IMG/VR virus record: IMGVR_UViG_3300033978_000457
Location: 36,126-100,125 of that record
Origin: a virus
DNA length: 64,000 bases
Strand: one strand, 5' to 3'
Part shown: positions 18,841-35,362 of the stretch, piece by piece
Numbering within the stretch: the stretch's first letter is position 1
Layout of the letters: the number at the start of each line of letters is the position of its first letter
Position numbers and translations under genes: made by a program
The notes under the pieces: model-generated
Told to the model about the DNA's origin: nothing
Databases searched by the model: none
The model's input: the letters and a program-made list of their open reading frames with translations, nothing else

Positions 18841-19383
18841 TCAAGAACTATTTTGCGGAATCCAGTCAGGGACGGGTCGACTTTTCCAAGAGAACATACT
18901 TGATTTTTCGCCTATATAATAGGCTTTGTACGCCGCAATAGAGTCGTCTTGTTTATATTGATCAGGCATAGCTGGAGTAGGCTGTGTAAAAGGTATATTA
19001 GGAATATTATCTGGAGGATAAGATAAGTAATCTACAAGTTCCCCAGATTTATGATGTTTACCATATCTATAGGTATACTCGTCCAGCAGCGCAATAAACA
19101 GCTTAGATAGCCAAATATAGTTTTCTTTGCTGGCTCTAGCCCATACTGCTGATGGGTGATTAACGTGGGTAGCCTTATAGAGAATATCTTCTCTATCGTC
19201 AGGTAGTTCCCAGTTTTTAAGTCGCCTGCCCCCTTCAGACAGTCGTATCCCCTGTACACCATCTATAACTCTATGAGCTGTAGAAAGTAGCTGAGCATAC
19301 TCTAAAATCATTTTTACACAATGTTTGTCGACATGCTCACGAGCACATTTTTCAACATCGTGACTTAGATAGAAAATGTTCAA
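18841..19383 (-). CDS. pyrimidine-dimer DNA glycosylase-like protein
   Basis: MNIFYL, DKHCVKMILEYAQLLST, YKATHVNHPS.VW. Confidence 0.8.
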   Translation of the reverse strand: MNIFYLSHDVEKCAREHVDKHCVKMILEYAQLLSTAHRVIDGVQGIRLSEGGRRLKNWELPDDREDILYKATHVNHPSAVWARASKENYIWLSKLFIALLDEYTYRYGKHHKSGELVDYLSYPPDNIPNIPFTQPTPAMPDQYKQDDSIAAYKAYYIGEKSSMFSWKSRPVPDWIPQNSS

Positions 19384-19649
19384 ACGTATAAATCCTCTAG
19401 TAATTCGCTGAAATGTTCTTTGATTGCTTGCTTACTCTCGCCTAATGATAAAATCTCTAGACAAGCTATAAATAGTTGTTTGATATTATCTAAATCTAAT
19501 GGCATAACAACACCATCTTTTCCATGGCACCAGTTTTCATCAAAATCTAAATAATATTTACGTATATGAAGGTACTCTACCCCATTAAATACATTTACTG
19601 TGACTCTCCATTGACAATCATCAGTTTGATAAATTATGCGATCATACAT
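19380..19649 (-). CDS. PC4-like ssDNA-binding protein
   Basis: VNVFNGVEYLHIRKYY...KDG. Confidence 0.8.
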   Translation of the reverse strand: MYDRIIYQTDDCQWRVTVNVFNGVEYLHIRKYYLDFDENWCHGKDGVVMPLDLDNIKQLFIACLEILSLGESKQAIKEHFSELLEDLYV

Positions 19650-19908
19650 TGTTTTTCAATACGCTTGCTAGTGGCGCTACTGATGTTACTAAATCAGCTC
19701 GCACTAGTCTATAAGAATCCGTATCCCACGCCCAGGTTAAAACAGTATTATCTGTTTCTTGGGCATGGGTACGTTTTTCTTTTATATATGGGGTACTGAA
19801 GTCTACTGTAACAACATTATATTTTAACTTATTAGACTCTTGGCCTTTATAAGTAACTATTGCGTCACCTGCTTCTTCAATTTTTCTTCTTAGTTCTTCC
19901 TTATTCAT
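19642..19908 (-). CDS. conserved T5-like hypothetical protein (WYL/Sm-like)
   Basis: GDAIVTY..KLKYNV..DF..PYI, WDTDSYR; SD upstream of ATG 19908. Confidence 0.7.
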   Translation of the reverse strand: MNKEELRRKIEEAGDAIVTYKGQESNKLKYNVVTVDFSTPYIKEKRTHAQETDNTVLTWAWDTDSYRLVRADLVTSVAPLASVLKNNV

Positions 19909-20079
19909 TATATCTCCAAGCAGTTGTGTAAGTTCTCTTACGTTACCGCCTGATACACGAAAATCCAGAAAGCTATTGTAAACAGGAGAGTAAAAATTGC
20001 TCCCCAGTTTACCCGTTTGATTGCCTTTACAATTTGAATACAAATTTCTAGTAAAAGTATCATTTTTATGCCTATTGTT

Positions 20080-20172
20080 TGGTACTTCCGGCGGGAGTCG
20101 AACCCGCATTTTGCGGCTATCTACCGCTAAACACTTTATAAGGGTGGTAGTTTACCATTAACCTACGGAAGC
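20080..20172 (-). tRNA. tRNA-Ile(UAU) with long variable arm
   Basis: GCTTCCG/CGGAAGT acceptor, CTTATAA loop, GCGG-tagatag-CCGC V-arm, TTCGA, CCA; own promoter at 20192-20230. Confidence 0.75.
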
Positions 20173-20244: not shown

Positions 20245-21486
20245 TTAAAAAGAGTGCCAATTTTCAAACCCTTTAATATAGAGCTTTTTAAATTTATCTA
20301 TATCATAGAAGTATTCTTTACCAGTTTTTGGCTCACTAGACAAGTCCATATTATTAATTGAGAATGGAACGCTAGCATGAACATACCAATCCTCATAGCT
20401 TTTATCTTCATAGAATGATATATCAGAGACGACTAGTTTATAGTTCTTAGATTTTAAATATTCTCTAGACTTCTCACGTATTTCTTGATTTTCATAATGA
20501 TTGTGCTCAAAAGTAATAGCTTTAAATTTATATTGATCAAATGGAATTTTTAATAGAACATCCATAGAGAGACTCTGCGGAGGGTCTATATCTATTTGTA
20601 GGTAATCTATCACTTTTGGCGCATTTTGCTCAGAAAGTAATTGAACATAGTCTATTTTAAGAGCATCTGTTTGTAGACACAAATTATCTCTTAAAGCTCT
20701 AAATCTTTGTGTTGGACTAAATGCTAAATCTATAGAGATGCCCTTCCAATCAAACTCTCTCTCTAATAAACAAGTATTGCTGTGCAGCTCTGGGTCACCA
20801 CTACCTATTTCTAAATAAAACCCATCTTTTTTTCCTTTAGCTACTAGAAGTGCAAATAAATCTTGGTGAGATTGAGCATAGCTTTTTTGTATATTTTCCG
20901 CGCCCTCAAAAGTTCTTTTTAGTGCAGAAGCTACTAAAGGGCTGTGCCTTGTATAAGCATTAGGGTTACCTACCTGAAGAACATTATATTTTATGAGGTT
21001 TTTGTAGAAAGGAGAAAATTTATCACTATGTACATCCAAACAATGAATTATTTCTCTAGACTCGTCTGTATTGCCTATCCACCAAGCAGATACTGCTTTT
21101 TCAAAAAATAGTCTATAATCTTTCTGCTCACATTTATCAAAACCTACAGAAGCAACCATGTAACAGTCGTGCCATCTTTGCTTTTGTTCGTAAAATTGAG
21201 ATAGAATAAAATAAGGTTCTGGGTTGTTGGGGTCTAGAGCTACTGCTCGTTTTAATAGGCCTTCTACTGTGCCCTCTCTACCGCCCGCTGCCATAAAGTT
21301 TCTAGCTGCCCCGCTTATAGCTGTATATACTTTTTTACGGTCATTGCCCGCAATATCTGCTGCTTTTAGATAGTGCGTTACTGCAGAGGCTAGCTGCCCT
21401 ATTTTTTCATAATAGTTGGCTAAATTTATGTTTGCCTCAAAACTGTATGGGCTACGTATGTATGTATTAATTAAATCTTGGGTCAT
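20245..21486 (-). CDS. TPR repeats + FkbM-type SAM methyltransferase
   Basis: N-terminal TPR-like helices; SQSHQD-like motif, YLEIGS, DYLQIDID, TFEH. Confidence 0.8.
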   Translation of the reverse strand: MTQDLINTYIRSPYSFEANINLANYYEKIGQLASAVTHYLKAADIAGNDRKKVYTAISGAARNFMAAGGREGTVEGLLKRAVALDPNNPEPYFILSQFYEQKQRWHDCYMVASVGFDKCEQKDYRLFFEKAVSAWWIGNTDESREIIHCLDVHSDKFSPFYKNLIKYNVLQVGNPNAYTRHSPLVASALKRTFEGAENIQKSYAQSHQDLFALLVAKGKKDGFYLEIGSGDPELHSNTCLLEREFDWKGISIDLAFSPTQRFRALRDNLCLQTDALKIDYVQLLSEQNAPKVIDYLQIDIDPPQSLSMDVLLKIPFDQYKFKAITFEHNHYENQEIREKSREYLKSKNYKLVVSDISFYEDKSYEDWYVHASVPFSINNMDLSSEPKTGKEYFYDIDKFKKLYIKGFENWHSF

Positions 21487-22441
21487 ATAAACATTCCTCA
21501 GGCATTTTTAAAATGAAGGCACTATTGTCTTGGAATCCGAAACTTATTAGAACATTCCCGTTTTTAAAAGCTAATCCACAGCAAAATTCTATTTCACAAT
21601 CCATAAAAGAAAAGCATTTCTTTGATACGCTAACTACTTTTAAATCTTTGTCGTAAAAAACTATTCTATGTCTATACTTAGCGTTTTTGCTGCCAAGCTC
21701 ACTATTAAATAGGTATACTTCGTGAGTTATACTTACATATCCGTCTCTAAACGGTACTACATGGGAGCTTCCTCTTAAATCAGCACATGTTTCTATATTG
21801 CTATGGTGTATAGCTACTTGTTTAGTTATGCCATCTTTATACTCTACTATTTCAGTAGGACTATGCCATTTTACATAAGTTATTTCTGGCTTACCTAAAA
21901 CTACTGCCCAGTTCTTTTCACAGTAAGATTCTACTAGCCCAGGTGTAGGTATTCTTTGTCTAGATACTTCCTTACATACTCCATCGATATACTCTAACTC
22001 TGAGAGTTCCATACGACCTTCACCGTTAGTTGTAGTATCCCTTCTAACGCCAGTTATATAAAATTTACCCTCGTGTTTAAACAACCTACCATCCTCTAGG
22101 CCAACGAACTCCCATATAGGGTCCTTGTCAAGGGCGCTAGTATCTATTTTAGAATAATTTAAAATATTTAGATCATCGTCTAACTCTGCAAAATAATTGA
22201 AGGTTCTTAAGTACGGGTCTGCTTCTGGGTGTAAATACTGTAACGGGCCATATAAATGGTAAAATTTTTGACTTTCGCTATGATATAGAATATAATTCAA
22301 TACTCTAATGTTGACGTAAGTTTTATCCCCATCAACGAACACAGAGGGGTTCATAATACCCATCCCATTAGTTTCTTGGCTGGGCAGAATTAATTGCTTT
22401 ACCGTTCCCCCATTGTCTAGGGCTAACTGTGCTAAGTTCAT
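21467..22441 (-). CDS. five-bladed beta-propeller glycosidase-like protein
   Basis: MNPS, GLEDGRL, EKNW, LRGSS, IEFCCGL, SFGFQD blade motifs. Confidence 0.7.
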   Translation of the reverse strand: MNLAQLALDNGGTVKQLILPSQETNGMGIMNPSVFVDGDKTYVNIRVLNYILYHSESQKFYHLYGPLQYLHPEADPYLRTFNYFAELDDDLNILNYSKIDTSALDKDPIWEFVGLEDGRLFKHEGKFYITGVRRDTTTNGEGRMELSELEYIDGVCKEVSRQRIPTPGLVESYCEKNWAVVLGKPEITYVKWHSPTEIVEYKDGITKQVAIHHSNIETCADLRGSSHVVPFRDGYVSITHEVYLFNSELGSKNAKYRHRIVFYDKDLKVVSVSKKCFSFMDCEIEFCCGLAFKNGNVLISFGFQDNSAFILKMPEECLYDPRFN

Positions 22442-23175
22442 ATTGAAATCCTTTGTAAATCTATATTATTATTTTTCCACCAATTTAGTATAAACTCATG
22501 TGAGTCATGGTGTAGTGGGCCTTGTCCGTCATACATTACTAATTCTGTGCCTTTATATGTAGACTTGCAATTAACTGTGTCTTCAACAAATAGTGGAAAT
22601 ATGTAAACATTACTATTACTTGGGTCAAGTATAACATTTTCTACTATAGGCAGAAATGATGTTTTTAAGTCTACACAGAAATTATTAGGGGCTATTACAT
22701 GCTGATCTATTACTTTCTTTGCGTAAGAACGCTTTACTATAAAAGCTGCAATACACCAATCATTCCAATTTCTACTTCTTATCTTTGTAGGAGTTTCTAG
22801 CCCCTCTCCGACATTTACTAATTGTATTGCTTCCCAGTTCGTTGGTAATATACTAATAAACTCTTTTAAAGTAAATTTCCAATAATCTAAAGTTTCAAAA
22901 GAAACATCGTCCTCCATTATTATACAGAAGTCGTCTTGGCAAGTATTATACCAATCGTATAAATTATAAAGGTGAGACGCTATAGGCCCATAGCTATTGC
23001 TATGTAGCGCCTGTAACGTCTCACCCTTTAAGCTAAAATCACTTGTCTCAAATCTTTCACAAATAATGAATTTATAGTTATTAGTATATTTATTAATTTG
23101 TCTTACAAAATTATCGCGTCTGTCAGCAGACTCTCTTAGAGTTATAACTCTTATTGTAGGCAGATTATCTAACAA
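22438..23175 (-). CDS. glycosyltransferase family 25
   Basis: I.L..S.DRR, G...SH, IIMEDD. Confidence 0.8.
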   Translation of the reverse strand: MLDNLPTIRVITLRESADRRDNFVRQINKYTNNYKFIICERFETSDFSLKGETLQALHSNSYGPIASHLYNLYDWYNTCQDDFCIIMEDDVSFETLDYWKFTLKEFISILPTNWEAIQLVNVGEGLETPTKIRSRNWNDWCIAAFIVKRSYAKKVIDQHVIAPNNFCVDLKTSFLPIVENVILDPSNSNVYIFPLFVEDTVNCKSTYKGTELVMYDGQGPLHHDSHEFILNWWKNNNIDLQRISI

Positions 23176-23189
23176 GTTATCCTTTGATT

Positions 23190-25346
23190 TTATGGTTTTT
23201 CTACTGCTTTTGCTGCTTCGGCTGCTGCAACTGCTGCTGCTTCTGCAGCTACTCTTGCTGCTTCTTCGGCTGCTGCAACTGCTGCTGCTTCTGCTTCTGC
23301 AGCTACTCGTGCTGCTTCTTCAGCTGCTGCAACTGCTGCTGCTTCTTCTGCCGCTTTTGCTGCTAAAGCTGCTTCTGCAGCTGCTACTTGTTCAGCTAGT
23401 GCTACTTCTGCGGCTATTCTAGCTGCTTCGGCCGCTTCTACTGCTGCTGCTTGTTCTGCTGCAATTCTTGCTTCTTCAGCTGCTCGTGCTGCTTCTTCGG
23501 CTGCTATTCTTGCTGCCTCGGCGGCTGCTACCTCTTCAGCGGCTACTCGTGCGGCTTCAGCTTCTGCTGCTAATCGTGCTGCTTCTTCGGCTGCTGTTGC
23601 CTCTTCAGCGGCTACTCGTGCTGCTTCAGCTTCTACCGCTAATCGTGCTGCTTCTTCGGCTGCTGTTGCCTCTTCAGCGGCTACTCGTGCTGCTTCAGCT
23701 TCTGCCGCTAATCGTGCTGCTTCTTCAGCTGCTATTCGTGCTGCCTCGGCTGCTGCTGCCTCTTCGGCGACTACTCGCGCTGCTTCGGCTTCTGCTGCTA
23801 ATCGTGCTGCTTCTGCTAATGCTGCTTCTTCGGCTGCTATTCTTGCTGCCTCGGCGGCTGCTACCTCTTCAGCGGCTACTCGTGCGGCTTCAGCTTCTGC
23901 TGCTAATCGTGCTGCTTCGGCTTCTGCTGCTAATCGTGCTACCTCTTCAGCGGCTACTCGTGCGGCTTCAGCTTCTGCTGCTAATCGTGCTGCTTCGGCT
24001 TCTGCTGCTAATCGTGCTACTTCTTCGGCTGCTGCTTCTTCGGCTGTTATTCTTGCTGCCTCGGCGGCTGCTACCTCTTCAGCGGCTACTCGTGCGGCTT
24101 CAGCTTCTGCTGCTAATCGTGCTGCTTCGGCTTCTGCTGCTAATCGTGCTACTTCTTCGGCTGCTGCTGCTGCCTCTTCAGCGGCTACTCGTGCTGCTTC
24201 AGCTTCTGCTGCTAATCGTGCTGCTTCTGCTAATGCTGCTTCTTCGGCTGCTATTCTTGCTGCCTCGGCGGCTGCTACCTCTTCAGCGGCTACTCGTGCG
24301 GCTTCAGCTTCTGCTGCTAATCGTGCTGCTTCTTCGGCTGCTGCTGCCTCTTCGGCGGCTACTCGCGCTGCTTCGGCTTCTGCTGCTAATCGTGCTGCTT
24401 CTTCGGCTGCTATTCGTGCTGCCTCAACTGCTGCTGCTTCTTCGGCGGCTACTCGCGCTGCTTCTATAGCTACTCTTGCTGCCTCAACTGCTGCTGCTTC
24501 TTCAGCTGCTACACGAGCTGCTTCAACCGCCTCTAGTCGTGCTGCTTCTTCTGCTGCTATACGAGTTACTTCAGCAGCTGCTGCTTCTTCTGCTGCTACA
24601 CGAGCTGCTTCAATTGCTGCTGCTACACGAGCTGCTTCAGCTGCTGCTGCTTCAGCTGCTGCACGTTCTTCAGCTTCTTTAGCAGCTTTCTTTTGTTGTT
24701 TTCGAGTTTCTGATTCTTCTACGTTTGCAGACTCAGCAACTTTTTTAGCTTCTTGAATAAGTTTTGTAGCAAAAGTTGATGCTTTTAAATCTGCCTCTTT
24801 TTTAAGAAAATCAGCTGCTTTTGCAACTAAATCAGCAGCTTCTTGTTTCCGCTCATTTATCTTAGCTAATAGGCCGCTAACCATCTTTTCTAGGTCGCGT
24901 ACTTCTTCTAGTACTTCATTTGCTTTTAGAGTAGCTTTAGCTGCTTTATGAGTAACTTCTTCAATTTGTTTTTCCTTTTTATTTTCTTTGCTAAAATCTT
25001 CTTCTTCCATTTTTTTAGTTGGAGTATTGATGAACATATCTAATAAATTAAAAGGTTTTAAAATACCTTTACCGTCTAAGTATTGAACTGGCACAGTTAA
25101 AAATCCATTTGAATTTTGTACAGGAGCAGTTACTATGAACGCGGCATAAGCTTTTTTATTATCTGACTGAAATAAAATTGTATCTCCAACAAAAATATCT
25201 TCTTCGCTTAAAGAATTAAAGTCCTCATCTTTATGGTCTAAAAAAATAAAATTAGCTTCTTTTATTTCTGTTGCATTTAGTCTAAAGGACCCAAGTCCTG
25301 GGTCTCCTGGGTTTATGTAGTCACTATATCTAAATAATCTTTTCAT
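23190..25346 (-). CDS. globular domain + long Ala/Glu/Arg helical repeat protein
   Basis: About 490 aa of EAAR(L/V/I)AAE repeats after a 110 aa beta-rich domain. Confidence 0.85.
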   Translation of the reverse strand: MKRLFRYSDYINPGDPGLGSFRLNATEIKEANFIFLDHKDEDFNSLSEEDIFVGDTILFQSDNKKAYAAFIVTAPVQNSNGFLTVPVQYLDGKGILKPFNLLDMFINTPTKKMEEEDFSKENKKEKQIEEVTHKAAKATLKANEVLEEVRDLEKMVSGLLAKINERKQEAADLVAKAADFLKKEADLKASTFATKLIQEAKKVAESANVEESETRKQQKKAAKEAEERAAAEAAAAEAARVAAAIEAARVAAEEAAAAEVTRIAAEEAARLEAVEAARVAAEEAAAVEAARVAIEAARVAAEEAAAVEAARIAAEEAARLAAEAEAARVAAEEAAAAEEAARLAAEAEAARVAAEEVAAAEAARIAAEEAALAEAARLAAEAEAARVAAEEAAAAAEEVARLAAEAEAARLAAEAEAARVAAEEVAAAEAARITAEEAAAEEVARLAAEAEAARLAAEAEAARVAAEEVARLAAEAEAARLAAEAEAARVAAEEVAAAEAARIAAEEAALAEAARLAAEAEAARVVAEEAAAAEAARIAAEEAARLAAEAEAARVAAEEATAAEEAARLAVEAEAARVAAEEATAAEEAARLAAEAEAARVAAEEVAAAEAARIAAEEAARAAEEARIAAEQAAAVEAAEAARIAAEVALAEQVAAAEAALAAKAAEEAAAVAAAEEAARVAAEAEAAAVAAAEEAARVAAEAAAVAAAEAAKAVEKP
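23210..24670. repeat. coding tandem repeats (AEAARLAAE-type units)
   Basis: Repeated gcttctgctgctaatcgtgct / cttcagcggctactcgtgc blocks. Confidence 0.9.
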
Positions 25347-25378
25347 GTTTTTCCTATAGATAATAAATTATCTCTTTG

Positions 25379-25534
25379 TCATACTATTCTTGAAAAATAA
25401 GTTCCGTTTTGTCCTATTAGCATAAACGGTGGAGAAGTGCCGCCACCACTTACAGGTAACTTACTAAATGGTAGTAAACCAGAAGGTAGTCTAGGAGGTA
25501 AGAAAAATCTAGGACGAAATACTCCGTTGCTCAT
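25379..25534 (-). CDS. small Pro-rich hypothetical protein
   Basis: Manual ORF MSNGVFRPRFFLPPRLPSGLLP... Confidence 0.4.
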   Translation of the reverse strand: MSNGVFRPRFFLPPRLPSGLLPFSKLPVSGGGTSPPFMLIGQNGTYFSRIV

Positions 25535-25554
25535 CGTATTCTACCCTTCTTTAT

Positions 25555-26025
25555 TTACGAAACTTCTTCGAACCAAATAGTTCCGCTTACGGTAATACTG
25601 TCTGCTGGTGTAGTTTCAAGTTCCAGTGTCCAGCGATCTCCAGCTTTTATATATGGGCGCGTTTCGGGCGTATATATCATCATATACGGAACACGAACGT
25701 TCCAAACATGGTCTTCTAATTCTGTAATAGTACCAGCCGTCATTTTAGTTGTGTTATTTACTTCGATAGTAGCACCACATGCTGTGTCGTCTACACCTAG
25801 AGGGGCAGCAGTAGGCACAGTGCCACCGCTACCTGTAGTGGATCCAACACCTCGGTTACAGGTAAGGACAAGGCCTTCTTCCTGTGCATCCCCTACTTCC
25901 GTTGATTGGGAAATAGACCAAGCATGTACTTTTATTGGTTTATTTGTTCCCGCTAAGACTTCAAAGAAATCTTGCTGAGCGGTAACTGCTATTGATTTAA
26001 AAACTGCAGTATACATTCTTCCCAT
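25555..26025 (-). CDS. putative structural beta-sandwich protein
   Basis: Thr/Gly-rich beta-type sequence in the fibre operon. Confidence 0.6.
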   Translation of the reverse strand: MGRMYTAVFKSIAVTAQQDFFEVLAGTNKPIKVHAWSISQSTEVGDAQEEGLVLTCNRGVGSTTGSGGTVPTAAPLGVDDTACGATIEVNNTTKMTAGTITELEDHVWNVRVPYMMIYTPETRPYIKAGDRWTLELETTPADSITVSGTIWFEEVS

Positions 26026-26029
26026 ATTT

Positions 26030-26785
26030 TTACCTCATTAGTAAATGTTGAAATACATTATTAATTCTTGCCTCAATTGGCAGCCCAAATTTTTCTTGCC
26101 CAGTGTCTCTCAGGACACAGACTACAGATGCCCAACTCTCATTACCCGCATTTTGCCCAGTGGTTGACGCAGCTATATCAACAGCTCCAGAAGTCCAATT
26201 TACGCTCATTAAACCTACACGAGAATCAGCCGTCTCTACAATACTTGACTGAATAAAATTATTTACAGATGCAATGGTCCAAGCAGTTGTCAAACTATTT
26301 CCTGCGGCGCCTCCAGCAGCAACAACAACAGCTCCAGTTGTTGTTGGTGTTATACTAGGAGGATTTACTCTAGAAGAGCCTGCCCCTGCAGAACCTGCAG
26401 TAGCCGTTCCATTAAATGGTTGAGTTAAACTAATTCCTCGCCAAACATGAATAGCATAGGCTCCCCCATCTTCAATATTTCCAGTTGGTCCTATTAATAC
26501 TTGTGTATCAGGCGTTGCAGGCATAAATTTGTAATATAAACTTAACCTTGTATTATTATTATCAGTGCCATTTGCGGTACCAATTAATATATATCCTGAA
26601 GTTGCAATGCTAGGCGTTGCAGGCGTACCTCCAGATGCATAGTTAATAGCAACAATAACTAAATCATTTGCAGAAACTCCAGCATCGCTGCCCCCAGTTA
26701 GACCGGAGTTGAGGGCAACTGTTGTGTCTCCAGTAGTTGCCCCTAAGAACCCTGCGGTTTTGCCTCCTACGTATGAAATGGCCAT
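26030..26785 (-). CDS. putative fibre-associated beta protein
   Basis: MAISYVG N-terminus, G/T/A-rich. Confidence 0.6.
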   Translation of the reverse strand: MAISYVGGKTAGFLGATTGDTTVALNSGLTGGSDAGVSANDLVIVAINYASGGTPATPSIATSGYILIGTANGTDNNNTRLSLYYKFMPATPDTQVLIGPTGNIEDGGAYAIHVWRGISLTQPFNGTATAGSAGAGSSRVNPPSITPTTTGAVVVAAGGAAGNSLTTAWTIASVNNFIQSSIVETADSRVGLMSVNWTSGAVDIAASTTGQNAGNESWASVVCVLRDTGQEKFGLPIEARINNVFQHLLMR

Positions 26786-26788
26786 TTA

Positions 26789-28564
26789 TTACGTTCCAAT
26801 CAGAGTTACTTTTAGCCCTTTTGCCGTGCCGTCACCAATTTGATCAACATCTATAGTAATTTCAGCATCGTCTGCTAATGATGTATCTGATATTACTGCT
26901 GCGGTAGCAGCAGTAGTTGAGGTTTTTTCTGTATTATCAATAGTTAGTTTAGTTGATAATATACTAGTGGCTTCTTCGTTGACATCTACTGTAAAAATAT
27001 TACCAGATGTTTGGGCTACGTTTAAATTTCCTCTAATACTTGTAAGTGTCATTGCAAAAGGCATACGGAAAGTAACTTTACTTGTACCTGCTGTAATTGC
27101 TGTAGTTTCATCACTAGCTGCAATTATGAGTATTTTAGAGTTTACAGGTCCTTGGGTGCCTTGCGCACCTGTAGTACCTTGAATGCTTGCTCCTGTAGTA
27201 CCTTGAATACCTTGAGTACCAATTATGCCTTGAATACCTTGACTACCAGCACCTGTAATGCCTTGAGTACCTTGCGCACCTGTAATACCCTGAATACCAG
27301 CACCTGCAGTGCCTTGAGTACCTTGAGTACCAGCACCTGCAATACCCTGAATACCTTGAGCACCTGCAGTGCCTTGAGTACCTTGACTACCAGCACCTGC
27401 AATACCCTGAATACCTTGAGTACCGGCACCTGTAATACCTTGAGTACCTTGAGTACCTTGAGTACCCGTGTTACCTGTTATACCTTGAGTACCTGTATTG
27501 CCTGTTGTACCCTGAGTACCTTGAGCACCAGTGTTACCTGTTGTACCCTGAGTACCAGTGTTACCAGTGTTACCTGTTGTACCCTGAGTACCTTGACGGC
27601 CTTGAATACCTTGAGCACCTTGGACACCTTGAGTACCCTGTGGACCTTGAGTGCCTTGTATACCTTGAGAACCAGTTATACCCTGAGTACCGGCACCTGT
27701 AATACCTTGAATACCTTGAGCACCCTGAGAACCAGTTATACCTTGAATACCTTGAGTACCAGCGCCTGTAGTGCCTTGAATACCTTGAGTACCTTGAATA
27801 CCTGTAATACCTTGACTACCAGCACCTGTAATACCTTGGGTGCCTTGAGTACCAGCGCCCATAGTACCTTGCATACCTTGGGAACCAGTTATGCCTTGAA
27901 TACCTTGAGAACCAGCACCTGTAGTGCCTTGAATACCTTGAGTACCTTGAATACCTGTAATACCTTGACTACCAGCACCTGTAATACCTTGGGTGCCTTG
28001 AGTACCAGCGCCCATAGTACCTTGCGTACCTTGGGAACCAGTTATGCCTTGAATACCTTGAGAACCAGCACCTGTAGCGCCCTGAGAACCTGTAGTGCCT
28101 TGACGGCCTTGAGTACCTTGACTACCAGCACCTGTAATACCTTGGGTGCCTTGAGTACCAGCGCCCATAGTACCTTGCGTACCTTGGAAACCAGTTATGC
28201 CTTGAATACCTTGAGAACCAGCACCTGTAATGCCTTGGGTACCTTGAGTACCTATGGTGCCTTGTGTACCTTGACGGCCTTGAGTGCCTTGAGTGCCTTG
28301 AATACCTTGAGTGCCTATAGTACCTTGGACACCGCTAGCGCCTTGAGTCCCTTCGACGCCTTGACTTCCTGTAGTACCTTGAGTACCGGCGCCTGTAGTA
28401 CCTTGAGTACCTTGTGCGCCGGCACCCCCACCTTGAATTCCTTGAATACCTTGACTTCCTGTTACACCATTTGCGCTCCATACAGTACCATTCCAAACGT
28501 ATCTAGTACCGTTTGGGGCAATATATTGATCATCTATGCTTGGAGAATTAGGAAAATTTATCAA
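26789..28564 (-). CDS. collagen-like protein (G-X-Q/G-X-T) with C-terminal globular domain
   Basis: About 440 aa of [12 protein letters not shown] triplets; N-terminal FPNSP..YVWNGTVW. Confidence 0.9.
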   Translation of the reverse strand: MINFPNSPSIDDQYIAPNGTRYVWNGTVWSANGVTGSQGIQGIQGGGAGAQGTQGTTGAGTQGTTGSQGVEGTQGASGVQGTIGTQGIQGTQGTQGRQGTQGTIGTQGTQGITGAGSQGIQGITGFQGTQGTMGAGTQGTQGITGAGSQGTQGRQGTTGSQGATGAGSQGIQGITGSQGTQGTMGAGTQGTQGITGAGSQGITGIQGTQGIQGTTGAGSQGIQGITGSQGMQGTMGAGTQGTQGITGAGSQGITGIQGTQGIQGTTGAGTQGIQGITGSQGAQGIQGITGAGTQGITGSQGIQGTQGPQGTQGVQGAQGIQGRQGTQGTTGNTGNTGTQGTTGNTGAQGTQGTTGNTGTQGITGNTGTQGTQGTQGITGAGTQGIQGIAGAGSQGTQGTAGAQGIQGIAGAGTQGTQGTAGAGIQGITGAQGTQGITGAGSQGIQGIIGTQGIQGTTGASIQGTTGAQGTQGPVNSKILIIAASDETTAITAGTSKVTFRMPFAMTLTSIRGNLNVAQTSGNIFTVDVNEEATSILSTKLTIDNTEKTSTTAATAAVISDTSLADDAEITIDVDQIGDGTAKGLKVTLIGT

Positions 28565-28605
28565 TTATTTTACCTTATAGAAAAATATAAAATTTTTCTT
28601 TCTTT

Positions 28606-31458
28606 TTAGAAGTTTATCATCATTCTACAGAGTAGAGTTGTAGTATTTAGGAAAGTATATAGGTAACCAACGTCACCTAGAGGGTCTTCGATATATTCTA
28701 GGAAGTTACCATTATGTGCAGCACCGTTTAACAGAGTCGTTGTACCTATTCCAGTAACTTCTTGTGTCCGAACATCCATAGCAAAGAGACGTGTTGGGCC
28801 CGAAGCAACGTTTCTTGTTAAGAATACTCTATCGCCCCCATCATAACAATATGATGAACCTGCTGTATATGATTCTGATTGAGGGTGAATAGTGATACCA
28901 AAATCCCATTTTCCAGTTGTAATATCATAGCGATCAATTTGGTTAGCACCACCACCACGTGGTGAGTAGATATATCTAGCTCTATTATTTGTACTGTTGT
29001 GAGCCCAAACAAGATCAATACCCGTACTACGAACTGGTATGGACAATATACAATAAGCAGTTGTTGCATCTGGCGTACCGGTAATAGTTAGTGCAGTAGC
29101 TGTATTTGCAGTAATTACGCTTTCAGTTCCACCAAGTGTGCCTGCCATAAAACGAATACGTTTACCTGCCCAGTAATTTGTAGTCCAGTTTTTTGTTGTT
29201 GCCTCTGTAAGCGTAGAGGCGGCACCAGCCGTGGCTAGTCCCCAGGAGTCAGCAATTTCATATTTTGTGGTTGCATCTGGAGTAAAAGATTGTGTTGTAT
29301 ATGTTAAAGTTGTTGCTGTGTTTGATGTAATTGAGATACGACCTGAGCCATATCCAGTACCCGCCTCAACTTTAAATAGATAACCAGCCCAGCAATTTAC
29401 TGGCCAATTTTTGCTTGAATCTACAAGAGTAGTAGCAGAGCCACCTGATGCACGACCATACGCTGCTTCAACACCCTGCCTACGTTGATCATCCACACCA
29501 AAAGCTTTAGTATCTTGGATGTAGTAACGAGATGTACCGTTTGCACCAGCCACAATCGTTGCAACTGTAAGAGATGTAGCTGTGTTTGAAACGATCCAAC
29601 GAGTCTGAGTAGCACCTGCTAAACCTGCAGCTTGAAGAATCACTGTTCTTCCAACGTGCTCGTTTACGATCCAGTTCTTAGATGGATCAACAATGACAGT
29701 TGTAGACTGCGAGGCTGTAGCTGCCATTGATGCCGCTTCTGATGTAGCAACAGAGAATGACGTTATTCCGTTAACACCGATAACCGTGTAAGCTGCGTTC
29801 CATCCTGCGCTGTTGCACCCAGCAAATGTAACACTATCACCAGATTTGATGAAGTGGTTAGTTGCCGTTGTAATTAGTGCTGTTGGGCCAACTGTCGTGA
29901 TTTCGATTGTACATCCAGATCCGGTACCACCGGTTGTAGCTCTACCTGTACCGACCGCGAATCCTGTAGCTGTTCCTGAATGCTGAAGAGCAATACTCGT
30001 AACAGCACCAGAAGCTCCAACTCCAGTCACGATAACCTGAGCACCAGTACCACCAACCGAACAAGTTAGAACGTCACCAAGCGAATAATTTGTGCCTGCT
30101 GCCGTTGGCGTAGCGTTTACTGCTTGAATACCAAGCGCAATACGTGCTCCGGTAGTTACGCCAAATGGAATCCAACCCCCAGCAGTACCATTAAGTGCAC
30201 AAGTGATGTTAGCTGCGACCCCATCATCAAAGTTAAGCCCACTCATCCAATAATCGTTTTCAATGGAGTAAGCAAACATTGAACTGACTGAGCCAATCAT
30301 CGTGAAAAATTTGTCATAATCAGGCCAAATTTCATAGTCGCTAGTAGAGTCTGGGGTTACAGTCCAGTCTCTGTTTAATTGAAATACTGTAGCGGTGTTG
30401 CCAACAATTCTACGATGTTGACCAATGCCTAAACCTGATTTGATATAAAGACGATAATTTACGTAGCGATCAACTGGCATAGCTGCGCCAGCATCAGTTA
30501 CCGTTCTAGCGGTGGCTGAAAGTGCGCCTAGTTTAGCTGTTACTAAAGCTGCGCCAACTTTGCCTGTTCTTTCGCAGGCAAAATCGGTCATAGCTGCGGA
30601 TGGAAGAATAGTAGCAGGTAATGATTTTTGTTGCCATGTGTCTGCAGCAATATCGTAGTAATACAACGTTGGTGCGGTTGCGCTTCCAATAAATGCGTAT
30701 ATACCGCCTGTTTTAATAGTGGCAAAAGAAGAATAATTTGGTATTGTATCCCATGCAGTAACTGTATAGCTTGCGGAAAGGATTTCAAAGTGAGATTGTG
30801 TACCAGCTGTGCTGATTGGGAGTGCGTAGGGAGCTACAGCTAAGTAAGATTGATTGTTCCAGTGATCGTGTGGCATAAGGTTAGCATCAGAAACGTACAG
30901 CGTTGTTGCATCGTTATAAAGAATCTTCTTATAACCTGTAACGCCGGTGCTGAATGTAATCGCTACTGTGTAGCCAGCCCACTGATTTATTCGCCATTTC
31001 TTTGTAGAATCTGCAATGCTAGCTGCTGCTGCAGTTGTTACAACACCGAAATCATGAATAGTATCTCCAACGTAAGTTAGGGTTTTTTCCTGCCCCGTTC
31101 CTGGCCCTTGAATAATTCTAAGAGTTTCACCGTTAAATTTACCTGTACCAATACCCCCAATTTGCACTGTGGTTGATGTAGCAGAAATAATTCGGGCGTG
31201 ATGCCCGCGATTTTTAGTAACACGGAGTTTAGTTCCAACAGCTGGCAGACCTGGACAGGTTGCAAGCTGAATAAATGTATCTGCCCAAACATCGTATTTG
31301 TAAAACGCGCTACCAACTAGAATATAGATAAATCTACTGTCTGCTGAATCTTCTGGAGATGTCATGGCGCTAATACCGCTAACCGCTACCGGACTTTGAC
31401 TCATCAATTCAAAGAATGGAAGATCAATAGTTTTCTTATTATTATTTTCAAATGCCAT
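28606..31458 (-). CDS. large putative adhesin: Kelch-like blades plus repeated beta modules
   Basis: YD...DTW / RYD..TGKW blade motifs; repeated D..K.W..N.W.G...I..NTAT. Confidence 0.65.
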   Translation of the reverse strand: MAFENNNKKTIDLPFFELMSQSPVAVSGISAMTSPEDSADSRFIYILVGSAFYKYDVWADTFIQLATCPGLPAVGTKLRVTKNRGHHARIISATSTTVQIGGIGTGKFNGETLRIIQGPGTGQEKTLTYVGDTIHDFGVVTTAAAASIADSTKKWRINQWAGYTVAITFSTGVTGYKKILYNDATTLYVSDANLMPHDHWNNQSYLAVAPYALPISTAGTQSHFEILSASYTVTAWDTIPNYSSFATIKTGGIYAFIGSATAPTLYYYDIAADTWQQKSLPATILPSAAMTDFACERTGKVGAALVTAKLGALSATARTVTDAGAAMPVDRYVNYRLYIKSGLGIGQHRRIVGNTATVFQLNRDWTVTPDSTSDYEIWPDYDKFFTMIGSVSSMFAYSIENDYWMSGLNFDDGVAANITCALNGTAGGWIPFGVTTGARIALGIQAVNATPTAAGTNYSLGDVLTCSVGGTGAQVIVTGVGASGAVTSIALQHSGTATGFAVGTGRATTGGTGSGCTIEITTVGPTALITTATNHFIKSGDSVTFAGCNSAGWNAAYTVIGVNGITSFSVATSEAASMAATASQSTTVIVDPSKNWIVNEHVGRTVILQAAGLAGATQTRWIVSNTATSLTVATIVAGANGTSRYYIQDTKAFGVDDQRRQGVEAAYGRASGGSATTLVDSSKNWPVNCWAGYLFKVEAGTGYGSGRISITSNTATTLTYTTQSFTPDATTKYEIADSWGLATAGAASTLTEATTKNWTTNYWAGKRIRFMAGTLGGTESVITANTATALTITGTPDATTAYCILSIPVRSTGIDLVWAHNSTNNRARYIYSPRGGGANQIDRYDITTGKWDFGITIHPQSESYTAGSSYCYDGGDRVFLTRNVASGPTRLFAMDVRTQEVTGIGTTTLLNGAAHNGNFLEYIEDPLGDVGYLYTFLNTTTLLCRMMINF

Positions 31459-31459
31459 G

Positions 31460-31777
31460 TTATACTGTCCACTTCACATTGGCGCGGGGGCCTACTGCGT
31501 ATCCTACGCGATTTTGAGATTTCATTTGGTCAAATGCCGAAACACCACCAATAGCCGCAATGTTATTTAGTGCTGCAACTGTAGTTACTGTAGTTACTGT
31601 AGTTACTGTAGTTACTGCAGCTAAAGTTGGTAAGGTTGGAATGCTGGCTTCGACCTGTAAACGATTAGAGCCGCCACCAACAACGTTTCCTAGTGGTTTA
31701 AGTAATCGAAAAATTTGACGCAATAACCCTAAACTGTCATCTTGCGCCATACCTTCTAAAGGCTTTTTATCCGCCAT
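31460..31777 (-). CDS. hypothetical protein with (TTV)n repeat
   Basis: VTTVTTVTTVTTV from a 9-bp tandem repeat. Confidence 0.6.
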   Translation of the reverse strand: MADKKPLEGMAQDDSLGLLRQIFRLLKPLGNVVGGGSNRLQVEASIPTLPTLAAVTTVTTVTTVTTVAALNNIAAIGGVSAFDQMKSQNRVGYAVGPRANVKWTV

Positions 31778-31780
31778 AAT

Positions 31781-33532
31781 TTATGTCCCATCACTTATCG
31801 TTAAATCCACGATGTTGCCTAGAGCGTCTGTTTCCCACCACATCCAAATACCGGTAGCAACGGGTCTAGTTTGTTGTACGTAGACTTCTGTAGCTCCACC
31901 CGGACCCCCGCCGGAACCTGAGGGACCTTGTATGCCCTGTGTTCCTGCACCTGTACTACCTTGAATACCTGTAGCACCTTGAATACCTGTAGCACCTTGA
32001 ATGCCTGTAGCACCTTGTGACCCTGCGCCTGTAGTGCCTTGAGTGCCTTGAGTGCCAGTAGCACCTTGGGTGCCGGTAGCACCTTGGCTGCCGGCGCCTG
32101 TAGTACCTTGTATGCCCTGCGCTCCTTGTGATCCAACAGAACTAATTAGTACTGCAAGGTGAACATTATTAGCAAATCCTGTTGTTCCAACTCCTCCCGA
32201 AGAAAGCAGGGTAACAGGGTATGTAACATACGCGTTAGAAGTGTTGGCATTTACAACAGTTGGGTTACCAGAAAGTTGCCAACTTTGAAAATCAGCACTT
32301 TCAATTTTAGACTGTATTCTGAATTGGCTACCTGAGGTTAGTGCAGCTAGGATAAATTCTATATCAACGCCATCATCGTTGATGTGAAAAAAGTTAATTT
32401 GCGTAGCACTAGTTTGAGTCGCATTATTCCATAACAAGTGACCTGAAAGAGGCTGACCACTAGTAGTATTAGCATCGGCTCTATAGGTAAAGACGGATGT
32501 AGATCCGCCTAAGGAACCCTGAGTACCTGTAGCACCTTGTGTACCTATAATACCCTGGGTGCCCTGAGTACCCTGAGTACCTTGAATACCTATAGCGCCT
32601 TGAATACCTATAGCGCCTTGAGTGCCTGTAGTGCCTTGTGACCCTGCGCCTGTAGTACCTTGTATTCCTGTAGCGCCTTGAGTGCCTACAGCGCCTTGGG
32701 CTCCTGTATCACCTTGTGTGCCTTGGGCTCCTACGTCCCCTTGTGTGCCCTGGGCTCCTACGTCCCCTTGTGTGCCTGCGTCCCCTTGTATGCCTGTAGC
32801 GCCTTGCGCCCCTTCGCCTGTAGCGCCTTGAGTACCTATAGCACCTTGAGTACCTGTAGCACCTTGAGTACCTATAGCACCTTGTGTTCCTGCACCTGTA
32901 GTTCCTTGAGCTCCTGTAGCTCCTTGTATACCTGTACCTATAGCACCTTGAGTACCTGTAGCACCTTGTGTTCCTGCACCTGTGGTTCCTTGAGTTCCTG
33001 TAGCTCCTTGTATACCTGTACCTGTAGCACCTTGAGTACCTATAGCACCCTGCGTTCCTACGCCTGTAGTACCTTGAGCACCAGTAGTACCTTGAGTACC
33101 TGCTCCTATAGTGCCTTGGGTACCCTGAGCACCCTGAGCACCCTGAGAACCAGTTATACCTTGAATACCTTGAGTACCCGCACCTATAATACCTTGGGTA
33201 CCTTGAACACCAGTTATACCTTGAGTGCCTTGAGTACCCGCACCTATACTACCCTGGGTGCCTTGAGAGCCTAGTATACCTTGAGCACCTTGAGAGCCCG
33301 TTATGCCTTGAATACCTTGAGCTCCAGCACCTGTAGTGCCTTGGGTACCTTGGGTACCTACTGTTCCTAAAATACCGGCTGTACCTTGAGTACCTATAGT
33401 ACCTTGAGTACCCTGCACTCCCTGTATGCCAGGCACTCCCTGATCAACAGGCAAAGCTAGTTGTACTACAACTTCATTTTCTATTACTTCAAGTGTTATC
33501 GTTTGGCCAGGCACTAGTACATAGTTTGTCAC
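31781..33532 (-). CDS. collagen-like protein with internal globular domain
   Basis: GTQ/GAT/GAQ triplet tracts interrupted by a ~125 aa domain. Confidence 0.9.
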
Positions 33533-33885
33533 TAAACTGTTACCTCTGGCGTCAGGGTAATTTTGCCCTGCATCGCTCTTGTCACATCACCACTGGGCAA
33601 TACTACTTCTATGTCATATACATAACTTGTAGCTTCTAATGCGCTAGTGTCTGCAGCTATTAAAGTTATCCCAAAAACTCCTGTTGCAGTGTTTAAGAAC
33701 GCTTTTCCATTTGCTATAGTGCAAGATAGGCTAGCAGTAGTTGATGTGTGGTTTTTCTTTAATGCCCCACGAATTGTAGCGCCCGTTAAATCTACGGGCA
33801 CATCGTTAACTACATAACGCATACGAATAGGGTAATCAGCACCTTGCGGAACTACATAATCTCTAACAACTGGATCAGCAATCAA
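33532..33885 (-). CDS. BppU-like adaptor domain protein
   Basis: QGAD, PVDLTG, L.A.DT..L, YVYDIEV, QGKITL.PEVT. Confidence 0.7.
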
Positions 33886-33920
33886 GATACTCCCTTTTGA
33901 ACCTGCATCAATTTAGATAC

Positions 33921-33957
33921 GAGAAAAAGGGTAGCAGATGGCATCTGCTCCCCTCTC
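33921..33957 (-). terminator. intrinsic terminator upstream of the fibre island
   Basis: GGGGAGCAGATG/CATCTGCTACCC hairpin + TTTTT. Confidence 0.7.
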
Positions 33958-34099
33958 AAAAAATTCATAATGCGGAAAGATTTTGGGCCTATGGGTACCA
34001 TCCCTAGTCTTTCCGGCGATCTTAGATCGCTCTCCCCAGGGTTAAATGGGGCACCCGATTTGCCTTACGTTACCACACGCAGTTTTGTCGGGACATATT

Positions 34100-34171
34100 T
34101 GGTATGAGGAGTAAGATTTGCACTTACATTGCTCCAAGCAAATGGAGGTCTTAGATTTAGATGATCCTCAT
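34100..34171 (-). ncRNA. tRNA-like RNA with 6-nt anticodon loop
   Basis: ATGAGGA/TCCTCAT-A-CCA; CTCCA-TTTGCT-TGGAG; GTAAG-TGCAAAT-CTTAC. Confidence 0.6.
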
Positions 34172-34172
34172 A

Positions 34173-34247
<75 letters not shown>

Positions 34248-34452
34248 AAATTATTCTTTAACATCAAATAGATAAAACTTGAGCATACTAACTTTTCTTG
34301 CGAATTGGTTGCGCAGCCACTCTATTCTGGCTCGCATATCTAGTGTCATGTACAACCTTTACAAGAGATTCTCGATCCCTGACTTCGGGGTGCTTCTCTT
34401 GATATGCTTTTAACAGTTTTTCTTCTAGTTCGGTCATTTCTCTTTTCTCATA

Positions 34453-34539
34453 TGGCGGATAGCGGTCGGTCTCGATCCACAGTGCTTTCACACCCAACCG
34501 CTTTCAAGGCGGTGCCCAGTCCCACTGAGTTCACTATCC
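34453..34539 (-). tRNA. tRNA-Ser(UGA)
   Basis: CTTGAAA loop, long V-arm, G73, CCA. Confidence 0.88.
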
Positions 34540-34544
34540 AAAAT

Positions 34545-34795
34545 AATTTCGGCACAAAACCCGCTAAGCGGTGAGGCCGGGATTTTCCGAATCCTATCAA
34601 CAGAGCCGGAAAGAAACTTATTTGAGGGGAGCAGCACGTTAATCTACTTGCCAATACTCTAACATAGGTACCTATGCGCCGGCGAGCTCTTGCTTTGGTA
34701 GTGCCACCCTCAAATAAGTTCGCTTGTCTCTTCTCAATCGTCGCTGGGCTAAAGCCAGGTCACATCTGTCCGAGCATCAAGAACTTATTCTTTAT
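34545..34795 (-). ncRNA. putative structured RNA with alternative long stems
   Basis: Follows promoter 34805-34845; 14-bp stem 34615-34628/34707-34720. Confidence 0.5.
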
Positions 34796-34829
34796 CGTCC
34801 TTACAGTATAGCTCGGACCCATCACAAAG

Positions 34830-35054
34830 TCAAGAACTATTTTTTAAGTTCTGCATTTCAAGAGATAGCTGATAAAGTAGTCGAATTTGCTCATCATGTG
34901 TCAGAAATTTATAGGGATCATAAAGACAGAAATCCCCTGCAGACCTAGGTTCTTGAGTAAGGAAGACACATTCTCTAGGATAATCAGTAGAGTTGGTCAG
35001 CACTCCAAAATCGATCTGCTTTCGACCGATATCATGAATAATTACCTTCATCAT
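34830..35054 (-). CDS. hypothetical protein
   Basis: ORF coupled to upstream gene. Confidence 0.45.
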   Translation of the reverse strand: MMKVIIHDIGRKQIDFGVLTNSTDYPRECVFLTQEPRSAGDFCLYDPYKFLTHDEQIRLLYQLSLEMQNLKNSS

Positions 35055-35362
35055 TTTTGGCGAGCCTTAGCGTATACATGCCAGACGTAGTTGCCATTAT
35101 CCTCTAGATACGTGCCTAGAAATTCAAATCCTTCATCAATGGGTTCCCCAGTGCCGTAGATTCTAATCTCTGCTATAACTTTAACAGTTGACTCAGGGCA
35201 ATGTTGAACCCAAACCATGGGACTATCTTTTTGAATCGCAGCATAAAGAAACTTTGCTGGCATCCCTAGCTCAATCTCACCTGAAAAGGCGGAGAACTTG
35301 TGGACGACTCGCTTCGGAGAAGGAGCAAGCATATGCTCAAGAGTTAGACCAGTCGCAGTCAT
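35051..35362 (-). CDS. conserved phage hypothetical protein
   Basis: YGTGEPI...FLGT....YVWHVY motif common in phages. Confidence 0.65.
   Translation of the reverse strand: MTATGLTLEHMLAPSPKRVVHKFSAFSGEIELGMPAKFLYAAIQKDSPMVWVQHCPESTVKVIAEIRIYGTGEPIDEGFEFLGTYLEDNGNYVWHVYAKARQK

Follow-up and report, generated by a model that had tools for sequence, protein, structure and literature searches.

Glycosylated collagens have been described from spores and from giant viruses. The sugars are hydroxylysine-linked in mimivirus, and the targets of glycosylation in mycobacteriophages are the C-termini of capsid and tail-tube proteins. In C. difficile, the protein SgtA, which combines a GT-A domain with four tetratricopeptide repeats (TPRs), is encoded beside bclA3 and adds beta-O-GlcNAc to Thr, and also to Ser, in the collagen repeats of the exosporium protein BclA3 (PMC7157674). 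Mycobacteriophages encode glycosyltransferases beside their structural genes that decorate virion proteins, according to the account of Freeman et al. 2023 given in PMC12619734, and GH130-like propellers without sequence similarity have been described in giant viruses (bioRxiv 10.64898/2026.08.04.742344). The collar protein p132 of phage T5 sits on the tail tube and anchors the side (L-shaped) tail fibres (PDB entries 7qg9 and 7zhj). Here we analyze a 13.6 kb gene block at positions 20245-33885 of a window of 64,000 nucleotides (nt), which comprises bases 36126-100125 of a single 100,125-bp viral contig (IMG/VR record IMGVR_UViG_3300033978_000457). The block encodes a p132 homologue, collagen-like and other fibre-type proteins, and three overlapping genes for putative glycan-handling enzymes. 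The explanation we favor, with somewhat better than even confidence, is that it represents a side tail-fibre module displaced into the replication arm together with an attached three-gene tailoring operon which glycosylates its fibres. Such an O-glycosylation cassette would be analogous to SgtA-BclA3, a suggestion that draws on gene linkage and precedent. We found no paper describing the propeller and TPR gene pair at the core of this cassette or its link to collagen-like tail fibres.

A fibre-gene block interrupting a T5-like backbone

The contig, rated approximately 96% complete, belongs by sequence to a phage related to T5 and has a T5-like genome backbone; its DNA polymerase is 48-49% identical to those of Proteus phage PM135 and other Demerecviridae. 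The first 34.7 kb of the genome contain the structural genes on the plus strand, and almost all other genes are encoded on the minus strand. ARAGORN identified 21 tRNA genes and one tmRNA gene on the contig. The sequence is present in lake-water metagenomes from many studies.

Window positions 2372-20109 are collinear, gene for gene, with positions 26258-44051 of PM135, from the flap endonuclease to gp042. The gene gp043 of PM135 (annotated as ‘helicase’) begins 0.8 kb beyond the collinear segment, and its counterpart was found here at 35915-36577 (phrog_3611, E 1e-31; BLASTP E 8e-11). What is a 0.8 kb gap in PM135 corresponds in this phage to the 13.6 kb block together with small genes and tRNAs that add about 2 kb. 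Since collinearity extends up to gp042 and the gp043 match lies past the block, the block interrupts a conserved PM135-like junction. A preliminary description of this stretch, made from the sequence alone, had proposed an inserted island, and comparison with PM135 bears this out.

The block opens with a gene for a protein of 117 amino acids (aa), which had been described as a BppU-like adaptor. Our searches correct this assignment and identify it as a homologue of the T5 collar protein p132. The protein matches phrog_1084 (E 1.9e-22) and phrog_3304, ‘L-shaped tail fiber protein assembly’ (E 6e-9), while a profile of nine family members matches PDB chains 8hqz_Q (E 9.5e-8) and 7qg9_R, which is p132 itself (E 1.5e-5). 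Alignment by hhalign with the PM135 ‘collar tail protein for L-shaped tail fibre attachment’ gave a probability of 93.8%. A whole-genome profile search found a single copy of the p132-type gene. Its stop overlaps the start of the following collagen-like gene by 1 nt, and a collar-like gene was likewise found directly 5' of a large fibre gene, usually a collagen-like one, in nine other phage loci.

The late operon of PM135 is closed by a collar gene and a fibre gene. In this phage the late block ends instead with a J-like central fibre gene, a gene for a 1720-aa collagen-containing fibre, three small genes and a 2-oxoglutarate (2OG)-Fe(II) oxygenase gene, and no collar gene was seen there. The p132 homologue is encoded on the opposite strand, inside the replication arm and 15 kb in. 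Because the only p132 homologue lies in the block and the late block has no collar gene, the block is best read as the phage's own side-fibre module in a displaced position, and is probably not an additional coat or appendage. The preliminary description had proposed a glycosylated and methylated fibre coat or appendage; the succession of fibre-type proteins and glycan-handling enzymes stands, the extra coat probably does not, and methylation is weakly indicated.

An enzyme operon linked to collagen-like genes

The last three genes of the block overlap, the GT25-like and propeller genes by 4 nt and the propeller and TPR genes by 20 nt, and form a translationally coupled operon. The first product, a 245-aa protein, had been called GT25, a label that holds in part. 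The protein matches phrog_2835 ‘glucosyltransferase’ (E 9e-30), carries the acidic motif of GT-A enzymes as E-D-D at residues 88-90, and has homologues in 98 cyanophage records, mostly annotated as GT25, but it falls below the Pfam GT25 cut-off (PF01755, 18 versus 24 bits). The homologous domain in two fusion proteins scored 17-19.5 bits against the same family. A PDB sequence search with the 245-aa protein yielded nothing useful and a metagenome scan gave no match. Pattern scans of viral contigs with either the GT25-like or the TPR protein alone also found none, and homologues were seen only in loci fetched with the propeller.

The second product, a 324-aa protein, had been described as a propeller glycosidase-like protein, and structural comparison both confirmed and sharpened this view. 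Its AlphaFold2 model (predicted local distance difference test, pLDDT, 86) is a five-bladed propeller. A Foldseek search of the PDB with this model retrieved GH130 phosphorylases, a mannoside synthase and the Leishmania GT108 GDP-mannose mannosyltransferases (E 3e-10 to 1e-8, template-modelling (TM) scores 0.5-0.65, and 0.60-0.65 at E 3e-10), and the top 40 matches are almost all GH130 or GT108. The model thus points to the fold of the GH130/GT108 mannoside phosphorylases and mannosyltransferases. Sequence comparison is far less informative: the protein scores below the PF04041 gathering threshold (16.7 versus 26 bits), the aligned stretch covers only residues 104-133 (PF04041 positions 88-117), no significant sequence match was obtained in Pfam or NCBIfam, and the family profile gave none against PDB sequences.

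The third product is a 413-aa protein described previously as TPR-FkbM. Its TPR part is well above threshold (TPR_17, 33.8 bits against a cut-off of 24.4), and a search with the family profile retrieves consensus TPR proteins at E 5e-25 and, at E 4e-5, O-GlcNAc transferase through its TPR region. The FkbM part of the earlier name fared less well. The C-terminal domain reaches 14.8 bits against an FkbM (PF05050) cut-off of 22.7, with E 5e-4 for the best family member, and a Methyltransf_23 match was found in six of 13 members of the family at E 1.4e-3 or weaker. A motif E-I-G-S-G-D-P resembles, by eye, motif I of S-adenosylmethionine (SAM) binding. We therefore refer to this domain as methyltransferase-like, an identity that the sequence suggests weakly.

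Next, the distribution of these genes was compared across phages. An IMG/VR scan with the propeller identified 126 relatives, and 80 loci were fetched and examined together with a control of 80 ThyX-centred loci of equal total length; open reading frames (ORFs) with at least eight uninterrupted G-X-Y triplets were counted as collagen-like. In 80 of 80 propeller loci the next or a nearby gene matches the 413-aa TPR protein. Common short neighbours of about 185 aa align with its TPR half, and long ones align over the full length. A collagen-like ORF was present in 50 of the 80 propeller loci and in one of the 80 controls (Fisher p 7e-19), often directly adjacent to the pair and co-oriented with it. 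When propellers were clustered at 80% identity the association remained in 22 of 38 clusters, in 18 of them within 3 kb, and most of the collagen-negative loci end within 2.5 kb upstream of the pair. Loci centred on two other genes of the block gave much lower counts by a coverage measure, with 0/19 around the 156-aa gene and 1/9 around the 950-aa gene. An independent distribution of enzymes and collagens had been named beforehand as an outcome that would refute the glycosylation proposal, and the co-occurrence seen here does not refute it.

The composition of the related cassettes is also informative. A GT25-like domain occurs in 22 of 80 loci, mostly within proteins of 720-1250 aa which are fusions of GT2, GT25-like, TPR and methyltransferase domains; the 998-aa protein of locus L083 combines all four. 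Some cassettes add separate genes for FkbM (E 7e-18), Methyltransf_24, GT2 and GT11 proteins, while no GT2 domain was found by Pfam in the block of the window. In Synechococcus phage DSL-LC02 the pair, annotated as ‘beta-mannosyltransferase’ and ‘FkbM family methyltransferase’, lies between a collagen-like protein gene and tail-fibre genes, and the TPR domain is the only part that a 717-aa neighbour shares with the 413-aa protein. Synechococcus phage S-SCSM2R is a cultured phage that carries the cassette. Since the TPR module is shared while the catalytic domains vary, it looks like a common adaptor used with differing catalytic domains.

The propeller family is essentially viral, with seven matches among 185,579 prokaryotic species genomes, all of them on contigs of metagenome-assembled genomes (MAGs). 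These MAGs are assigned to the unrelated lineages Chitinophagaceae, Methylococcus, Planctomycetia, Owenweeksia, Lutibacter, Saccharibacteria and Saprospiraceae, and the contigs are most likely misbinned phage contigs.

Enzymes encoded near fibres could instead remodel host envelope glycans such as lipopolysaccharide, S-layer or capsule, for example to block superinfection or to free progeny, and could be found there because both kinds of genes belong to a fast-evolving host-interaction region. Such an interpretation has been published for glycosyltransferases encoded in the hypervariable tail-fibre region of pelagimyophages (PMC7029224) and for those of actinophages (PMC10202952), and GH130 enzymes are classically degradative phosphorylases. 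For the present cassette we consider it unlikely. Judging from their translations, which show neither membrane nor export signals, the three proteins appear to be soluble, and no Gtr-type, lipid-carrier or export genes were seen in the cassettes examined. The linkage is specific to collagen-like genes, as the low counts in the other structural loci indicate, and fusion of the TPR to several different catalytic domains suggests one shared protein substrate. It is the solubility of the enzymes, the lack of lipid-carrier and export genes in the cassettes, the protein-binding TPR as conserved partner and the SgtA precedent from which we infer modification of fibres.

Another possibility is that the propeller and the TPR protein do not act on the fibres as enzymes at all, being either assembly chaperones of collagen trimers or a lectin-like fibre part. 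TPR proteins are common co-chaperones, the universal core of the cassette is the propeller and the TPR with the catalytic fusion partner optional, and the best structural relatives of the propeller include carbohydrate-binding folds. We give this possibility little credence in view of the 46 invariant columns of the propeller family. These columns are rich in charged residues (E116, D117, R119, R133, R134, R143, K176, K191, R223, H240 and H258 are invariant) and include an E116-D117-x-R119 motif that aligns with GH130, a pattern typical of an active site. Moreover, bona fide glycosyltransferases and methyltransferases occur regularly alongside the pair or fused to it, and the propeller has no fibre-attachment domain.

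Fibre proteins, accessory genes and tRNAs of the block

The block is filled by 12 co-oriented minus-strand ORFs (Table 1), in agreement with the preliminary description of a tightly packed run, and its junctions range from a 20-nt overlap to a 41-nt gap, the sole exception being a gap of 208 nt. The two tRNA genes reported to bracket it were recovered by ARAGORN. Codon usage in the collagen-like genes corresponds to these tRNAs: GGT and GGC together account for 78% of Gly codons, GGT alone reaching a frequency of 139 per 1000 codons as compared to 22 elsewhere, and ATA accounts for 44% of Ile codons. CAA makes up 84% of Gln codons in these genes and is matched by a tRNA-Gln(UUG) at 57989-58064.

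Table 1. Features of the block and its flanks, in window coordinates.
Feature	Position	Strand	Evidence or remark
tRNA-Ile(UAU)	20080..20172	-	downstream flank of block; ARAGORN; reads ATA
413-aa TPR protein with methyltransferase-like C-terminus	20245..21486	-	TPR_17; Rossmann-type domain weakly supported
324-aa five-bladed propeller, predicted GH130/GT108 fold	21467..22441	-	AlphaFold2 and Foldseek; core of conserved cassette
245-aa GT-A-type glycosyltransferase, distantly GT25-like	22438..23175	-	phrog_2835
718-aa helical protein	23190..25346	-	N-terminal beta domain of ~95 aa, then ~600 aa of Ala/Glu/Arg-rich helical repeats
candidate 51-codon ORF	25379..25534	-	in the 208-nt gap; ORF list
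156-aa beta protein	25555..26025	-	very large, highly conserved phage family
251-aa Gly/Ala/Thr-rich beta protein	26030..26785	-	small family, 52 proteins
591-aa collagen-like fibre protein	26789..28564	-	PF01391 E 1.4e-40; PHROG tail proteins
950-aa all-beta Kelch-type propeller protein	28606..31458	-	AlphaFold2 model, structural alignment, family search
105-aa protein with (Thr-Thr-Val)x5 tract	31460..31777	-	conserved upstream partner of 950-aa gene
583-aa collagen-like fibre protein	31781..33532	-	PF01391 E 1e-36; tail-fibre PHROGs
117-aa T5 p132 collar homologue	33532..33885	-	PHROG, PDB profile and hhalign matches
tRNA-Gly(GCC)	34173..34247	-	upstream flank of block; ARAGORN; reads GGT/GGC

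Between the tRNA-Gly and the collar gene there are about 290 nt without an ORF (33886-34172), GC-rich and self-complementary, with a terminator-like hairpin at 33949-33933. A scan for promoters and terminators returned 33 sites against 27.9 expected from shuffled sequence, which is no enrichment, and found no sigma-70-like promoter for the block. Comparison of k-mers common to the late intergenic regions gave none pointing to a shared late promoter. Beyond the gp043 counterpart, positions 36968-37480 encode a 170-aa protein with the N-terminal domain of a dATP/dGTP diphosphohydrolase (PF18909, E 7e-32), which by its sequence could be related to manipulation of the purine deoxynucleoside triphosphate pool or to a modified base.

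Both Thr-rich collagen-like proteins noted in the preliminary description pass the PF01391 cut-off of 27.2 bits by a wide margin, the 583-aa protein with 124.9 bits and the 591-aa protein with 137.3. Each has approximately 122-125 G-X-Y triplets, with mostly Thr, Ala or Ile at X and mostly Gln or Thr at Y, and periodic G-A-G phase shifts are seen in the translations. The 583-aa protein contains a globular domain of about 125 aa flanked by two collagen stretches (Thr 17%, Pro 1.5%), and the 591-aa protein (Thr 19%, Pro 1%) begins with a short head and ends in a globular domain of about 95 aa. We propose from these sequences that they could form trimeric shafts. Hydroxylysine-linked glycosylation of the GT25/COLGALT type was considered and rejected: Lys makes up 0.2-1% of the residues of both proteins, and given this near-absence of Lys and Pro the analogy to hydroxylysine glycosylation of collagens by GT25 enzymes cannot apply.

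Collagen-like genes also occur in the structural part of the genome. The collagen part of the 1720-aa fibre is Pro-rich, unlike the collagens of the block, with 33 Pro at X, 21 at Y and GPPGPP-type runs. Three genes after it, the 182-aa 2OG-Fe(II) oxygenase (phrog_61, E 2e-37; genome positions 34150-34698) closes the late operon just before the window, and a role as prolyl hydroxylase of the 1720-aa fibre is possible. The contig begins within a fourth collagen-like gene (genome positions 1-3629), where the assembly probably broke in collagen repeats. Between this gene and the terminase genes lie those for a 688-aa ‘long tail fiber distal subunit’-like protein and then a 277-aa protein of tail-fibre assembly.

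The remaining fibre-type proteins listed earlier, namely a 950-aa protein, small beta proteins of 251 and 156 aa and a long helical protein of 718 aa, are all present. The 950-aa protein belongs to a phage-only family of more than 283 clusters at about 55% identity, all 940-970 aa long, on contigs of 35-353 kb; an identical protein is encoded on a 112 kb contig, and the closest relatives are 81-83% identical, one of them (82%) on a 173 kb contig. In its AlphaFold2 model (pLDDT 88.8) a propeller is formed from both chain ends, with large inserted beta domains. VIA-align superimposed the model (range 12-950) on KLHDC10 with Z 24.2 and a root-mean-square deviation of 2.7 over 264 residues, Kelch_1 is precomputed on some homologues, and a 481-aa Kelch relative matches at TM 0.81. 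The model therefore indicates a six-bladed Kelch-like propeller fold. A Foldseek search of the PDB returned generic multi-propeller matches at TM about 0.1 and nothing else, and a BFVD search returned uncharacterised phage proteins only. The 105-aa gene was found by tblastn directly upstream of the 950-aa homologue in loci L001-L004, and in other phages the two genes come at the end of the tail module, after those for the tape measure, tail proteins and fibres. The 950-aa protein is probably a distal fibre or binding component. Within the 105-aa gene a perfect 9-nt repeat of 4.4 copies (31578-31617) encodes the (Thr-Thr-Val)x5 tract, which is possibly slippage-prone or modified.

No Pfam, PHROG or NCBIfam match was obtained for the 251-aa protein, and its family profile found no homologues across all fetched loci. 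The 718-aa protein is composed of 47% Ala and 22% Glu at residues 120-718, its gene contains tandem DNA repeats, and judging from the sequence its helical repeats would form a long rod. The beta domain of about 95 aa at its N-terminus occurs three to eight times in phage-type proteins of 500-3800 aa. For the 156-aa protein, which is probably a virion component, searches gave 669 homologues of about 60% identity and no PDB or Pfam match. Its profile has no match in loci centred on the 950-aa or propeller genes, and the 950-aa profile has none in loci centred on the 156-aa gene; these reciprocal misses suggest that the 950-aa and 156-aa genes are not generally linked.

Several observations weigh against the reading of the block as a displaced side-fibre module with its own glycosylation enzymes. 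The gene linkage fits fibre modification and mere residence in a hypervariable host-recognition region alike. Loci centred on the 950-aa gene contain the cassette within 10 kb in none of nine cases, though a collagen-like ORF is present in one to three of the nine, according to the measure used. The propeller could be a phosphorylase or hydrolase instead of a transferase, and hhalign of the 413-aa family against two true FkbM domains gave no match and so did not confirm the methyltransferase domain. A listing of RNA runs holding the sequence contained none. Actinomycetia phage DSL-LC01 encodes a distant homologue of the propeller (28% identity) whose neighbours are nucleotide and cell-wall genes, with no fibre gene next to it. 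Finally, homologues of the 156-aa protein in other siphophages are encoded just ahead of head-tail connector genes, so part of the block may decorate the head.

The DSL-LC01 homologue adjoins a DNA glycosylase and a methyltransferase, and it raises the question of whether the enzymes modify another cytoplasmic target, for instance a small molecule or the bases of phage DNA. DNA is a frequent substrate of phage glycosyltransferases (PMC12619734), and nucleotide-pool genes, ThyX and the MazZ-like dATP/dGTP diphosphohydrolase, are found nearby. We regard this as very improbable: in the 80 viral loci the pair lies in fibre neighbourhoods and not in those of nucleotide metabolism, hydroxymethylase or kinase partners were not seen, and a TPR adaptor argues for a protein substrate.

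The position of the 156-aa homologues between head and head-tail connector genes bears on the fibre module itself, part or all of which could form fibres of the head or neck (a capsid ‘coat’) in place of side tail fibres of the T5 type. Moreover, the tail is already supplied with fibres by the late block, which encodes the J-like central fibre, the 1720-aa collagen-containing one, and a distal fibre resembling gp37 along with its assembly protein. Set against this are the sole p132 collar homologue with which the block opens, T5 p132 being located on the tail tube, and the 950-aa homologues, which follow tape-measure and tail-protein genes. A head or neck location thus seems distinctly unlikely for the block, and given the neighbourhoods of the 156-aa homologues the head-fibre reading stays for part of it. 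In locus L186:45-4586 of another siphophage a 156-aa homologue belongs to a block of six genes that separates the head genes from the head-tail connector. That block also encodes a 510-aa protein with weak Kelch matches and hints at a head-proximal decoration module.

Proposed fibre glycosylation and comparison with known systems

If the block is a displaced side-fibre module with attached tailoring enzymes, the p132-like protein would form or join the tail collar, and the two collagen-like proteins would be attached to it as trimeric shafts. The Kelch-propeller protein and the small beta proteins could be distal or accessory fibre parts, and the Ala/Glu rod an additional filamentous part. The three soluble enzymes would act in the cytoplasm on newly made fibre proteins, with the TPR domain recognizing the collagen-like substrate as TPRs do in SgtA and in O-GlcNAc transferase. 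Sugars, probably including beta-mannose, would then be placed on Thr and Ser of the G-X-Y repeats by the GT25-like enzyme together with the propeller, and the TPR protein may methylate the glycan through its C-terminal domain. Since these collagens are without Pro, O-glycosylated Thr may also stabilize the triple helix. Galactosyl-Thr is known to stabilize the helix in Riftia cuticle collagen. Glycosylation may in addition shield the fibre or tune its binding.

A bolder version of this proposal, which we put forward as tentative and more probably wrong than right, is that the propeller and the TPR protein represent a phage-only system dedicated to collagen-like fibres. The TPR would dock on the nascent fibre and recruit interchangeable domains (methyltransferase, GT2 and GT25 among others), the propeller would O-mannosylate Thr in G-X-Thr or G-Thr-X triplets, and the sugar would replace the helix stabilization otherwise provided by hydroxyproline. 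If so, glycosylation would be required for fibre assembly, beyond mere decoration, and a single phage would use two collagen chemistries, with a prolyl 4-hydroxylase (P4H)-like oxygenase beside its Pro-containing fibre and a glycosylation cassette beside its Pro-free fibres.

Aquatic phages very commonly have collagen-like tail fibres, which pose the question of how triple helices stay folded without Pro and how such fibres are tuned. The conserved, virus-restricted enzyme pair described here is a concrete candidate for glycosylation of phage receptor-binding organelles. Fibre glycosylation would bear on prediction of host range, on evasion of antibodies and defence systems, and on the use of phage collagens as biomaterials. 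Our results also suggest that a T5-type side-fibre module, collar gene included, can relocate wholesale into the early/replication arm, in this case flanked by two tRNA genes that read codons favored in its collagen genes. The 950-aa Kelch and 156-aa proteins represent large, highly conserved phage families without an assigned function.

Compared with SgtA-BclA3, this locus shares a putative soluble, TPR-containing system for sugar transfer encoded near a Thr-rich collagen-like protein, and related phage cassettes, though not this block, hold GT2-TPR fusions of equal architecture. In the window the TPR is fused to a methyltransferase-like domain and not to GT2, and the candidate transferases are GT25-like and GH130/GT108-like. 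The phage collagens use G-T-Q, G-I-Q and G-X-T triplets, without the Pro of the GPT repeats of BclA. The substrate proposed here is a phage fibre as opposed to a spore coat.

The T5 genes for p132 and the L-shaped tail fibre pb1 and the corresponding gene pair of PM135 resemble the block in having a small collar gene directly before a long fibre gene, with p132 homology at the profile level and collinear replication genes. No similarity to T5 pb1 was detected. The collar-fibre pair lies here in the replication arm on the opposite strand and not at the end of the late operon, and behind its fibre, which is of the collagen-like kind, there are a second collagen, the Kelch-propeller protein, further parts and the enzymes. 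The propeller shares with GH130/GT108 proteins (PDB 9fj8, 7fir, 9erg and 6q4z) the predicted five-bladed fold, and the E-D-x-R stretch among the invariant acidic and basic residues of its family aligns with PF04041, but sequence identity is only 12-17%, and its family is phage-restricted and always found with a TPR partner. Glycosylation in mycobacteriophages and giant viruses differs from this cassette in both enzyme families and targets.

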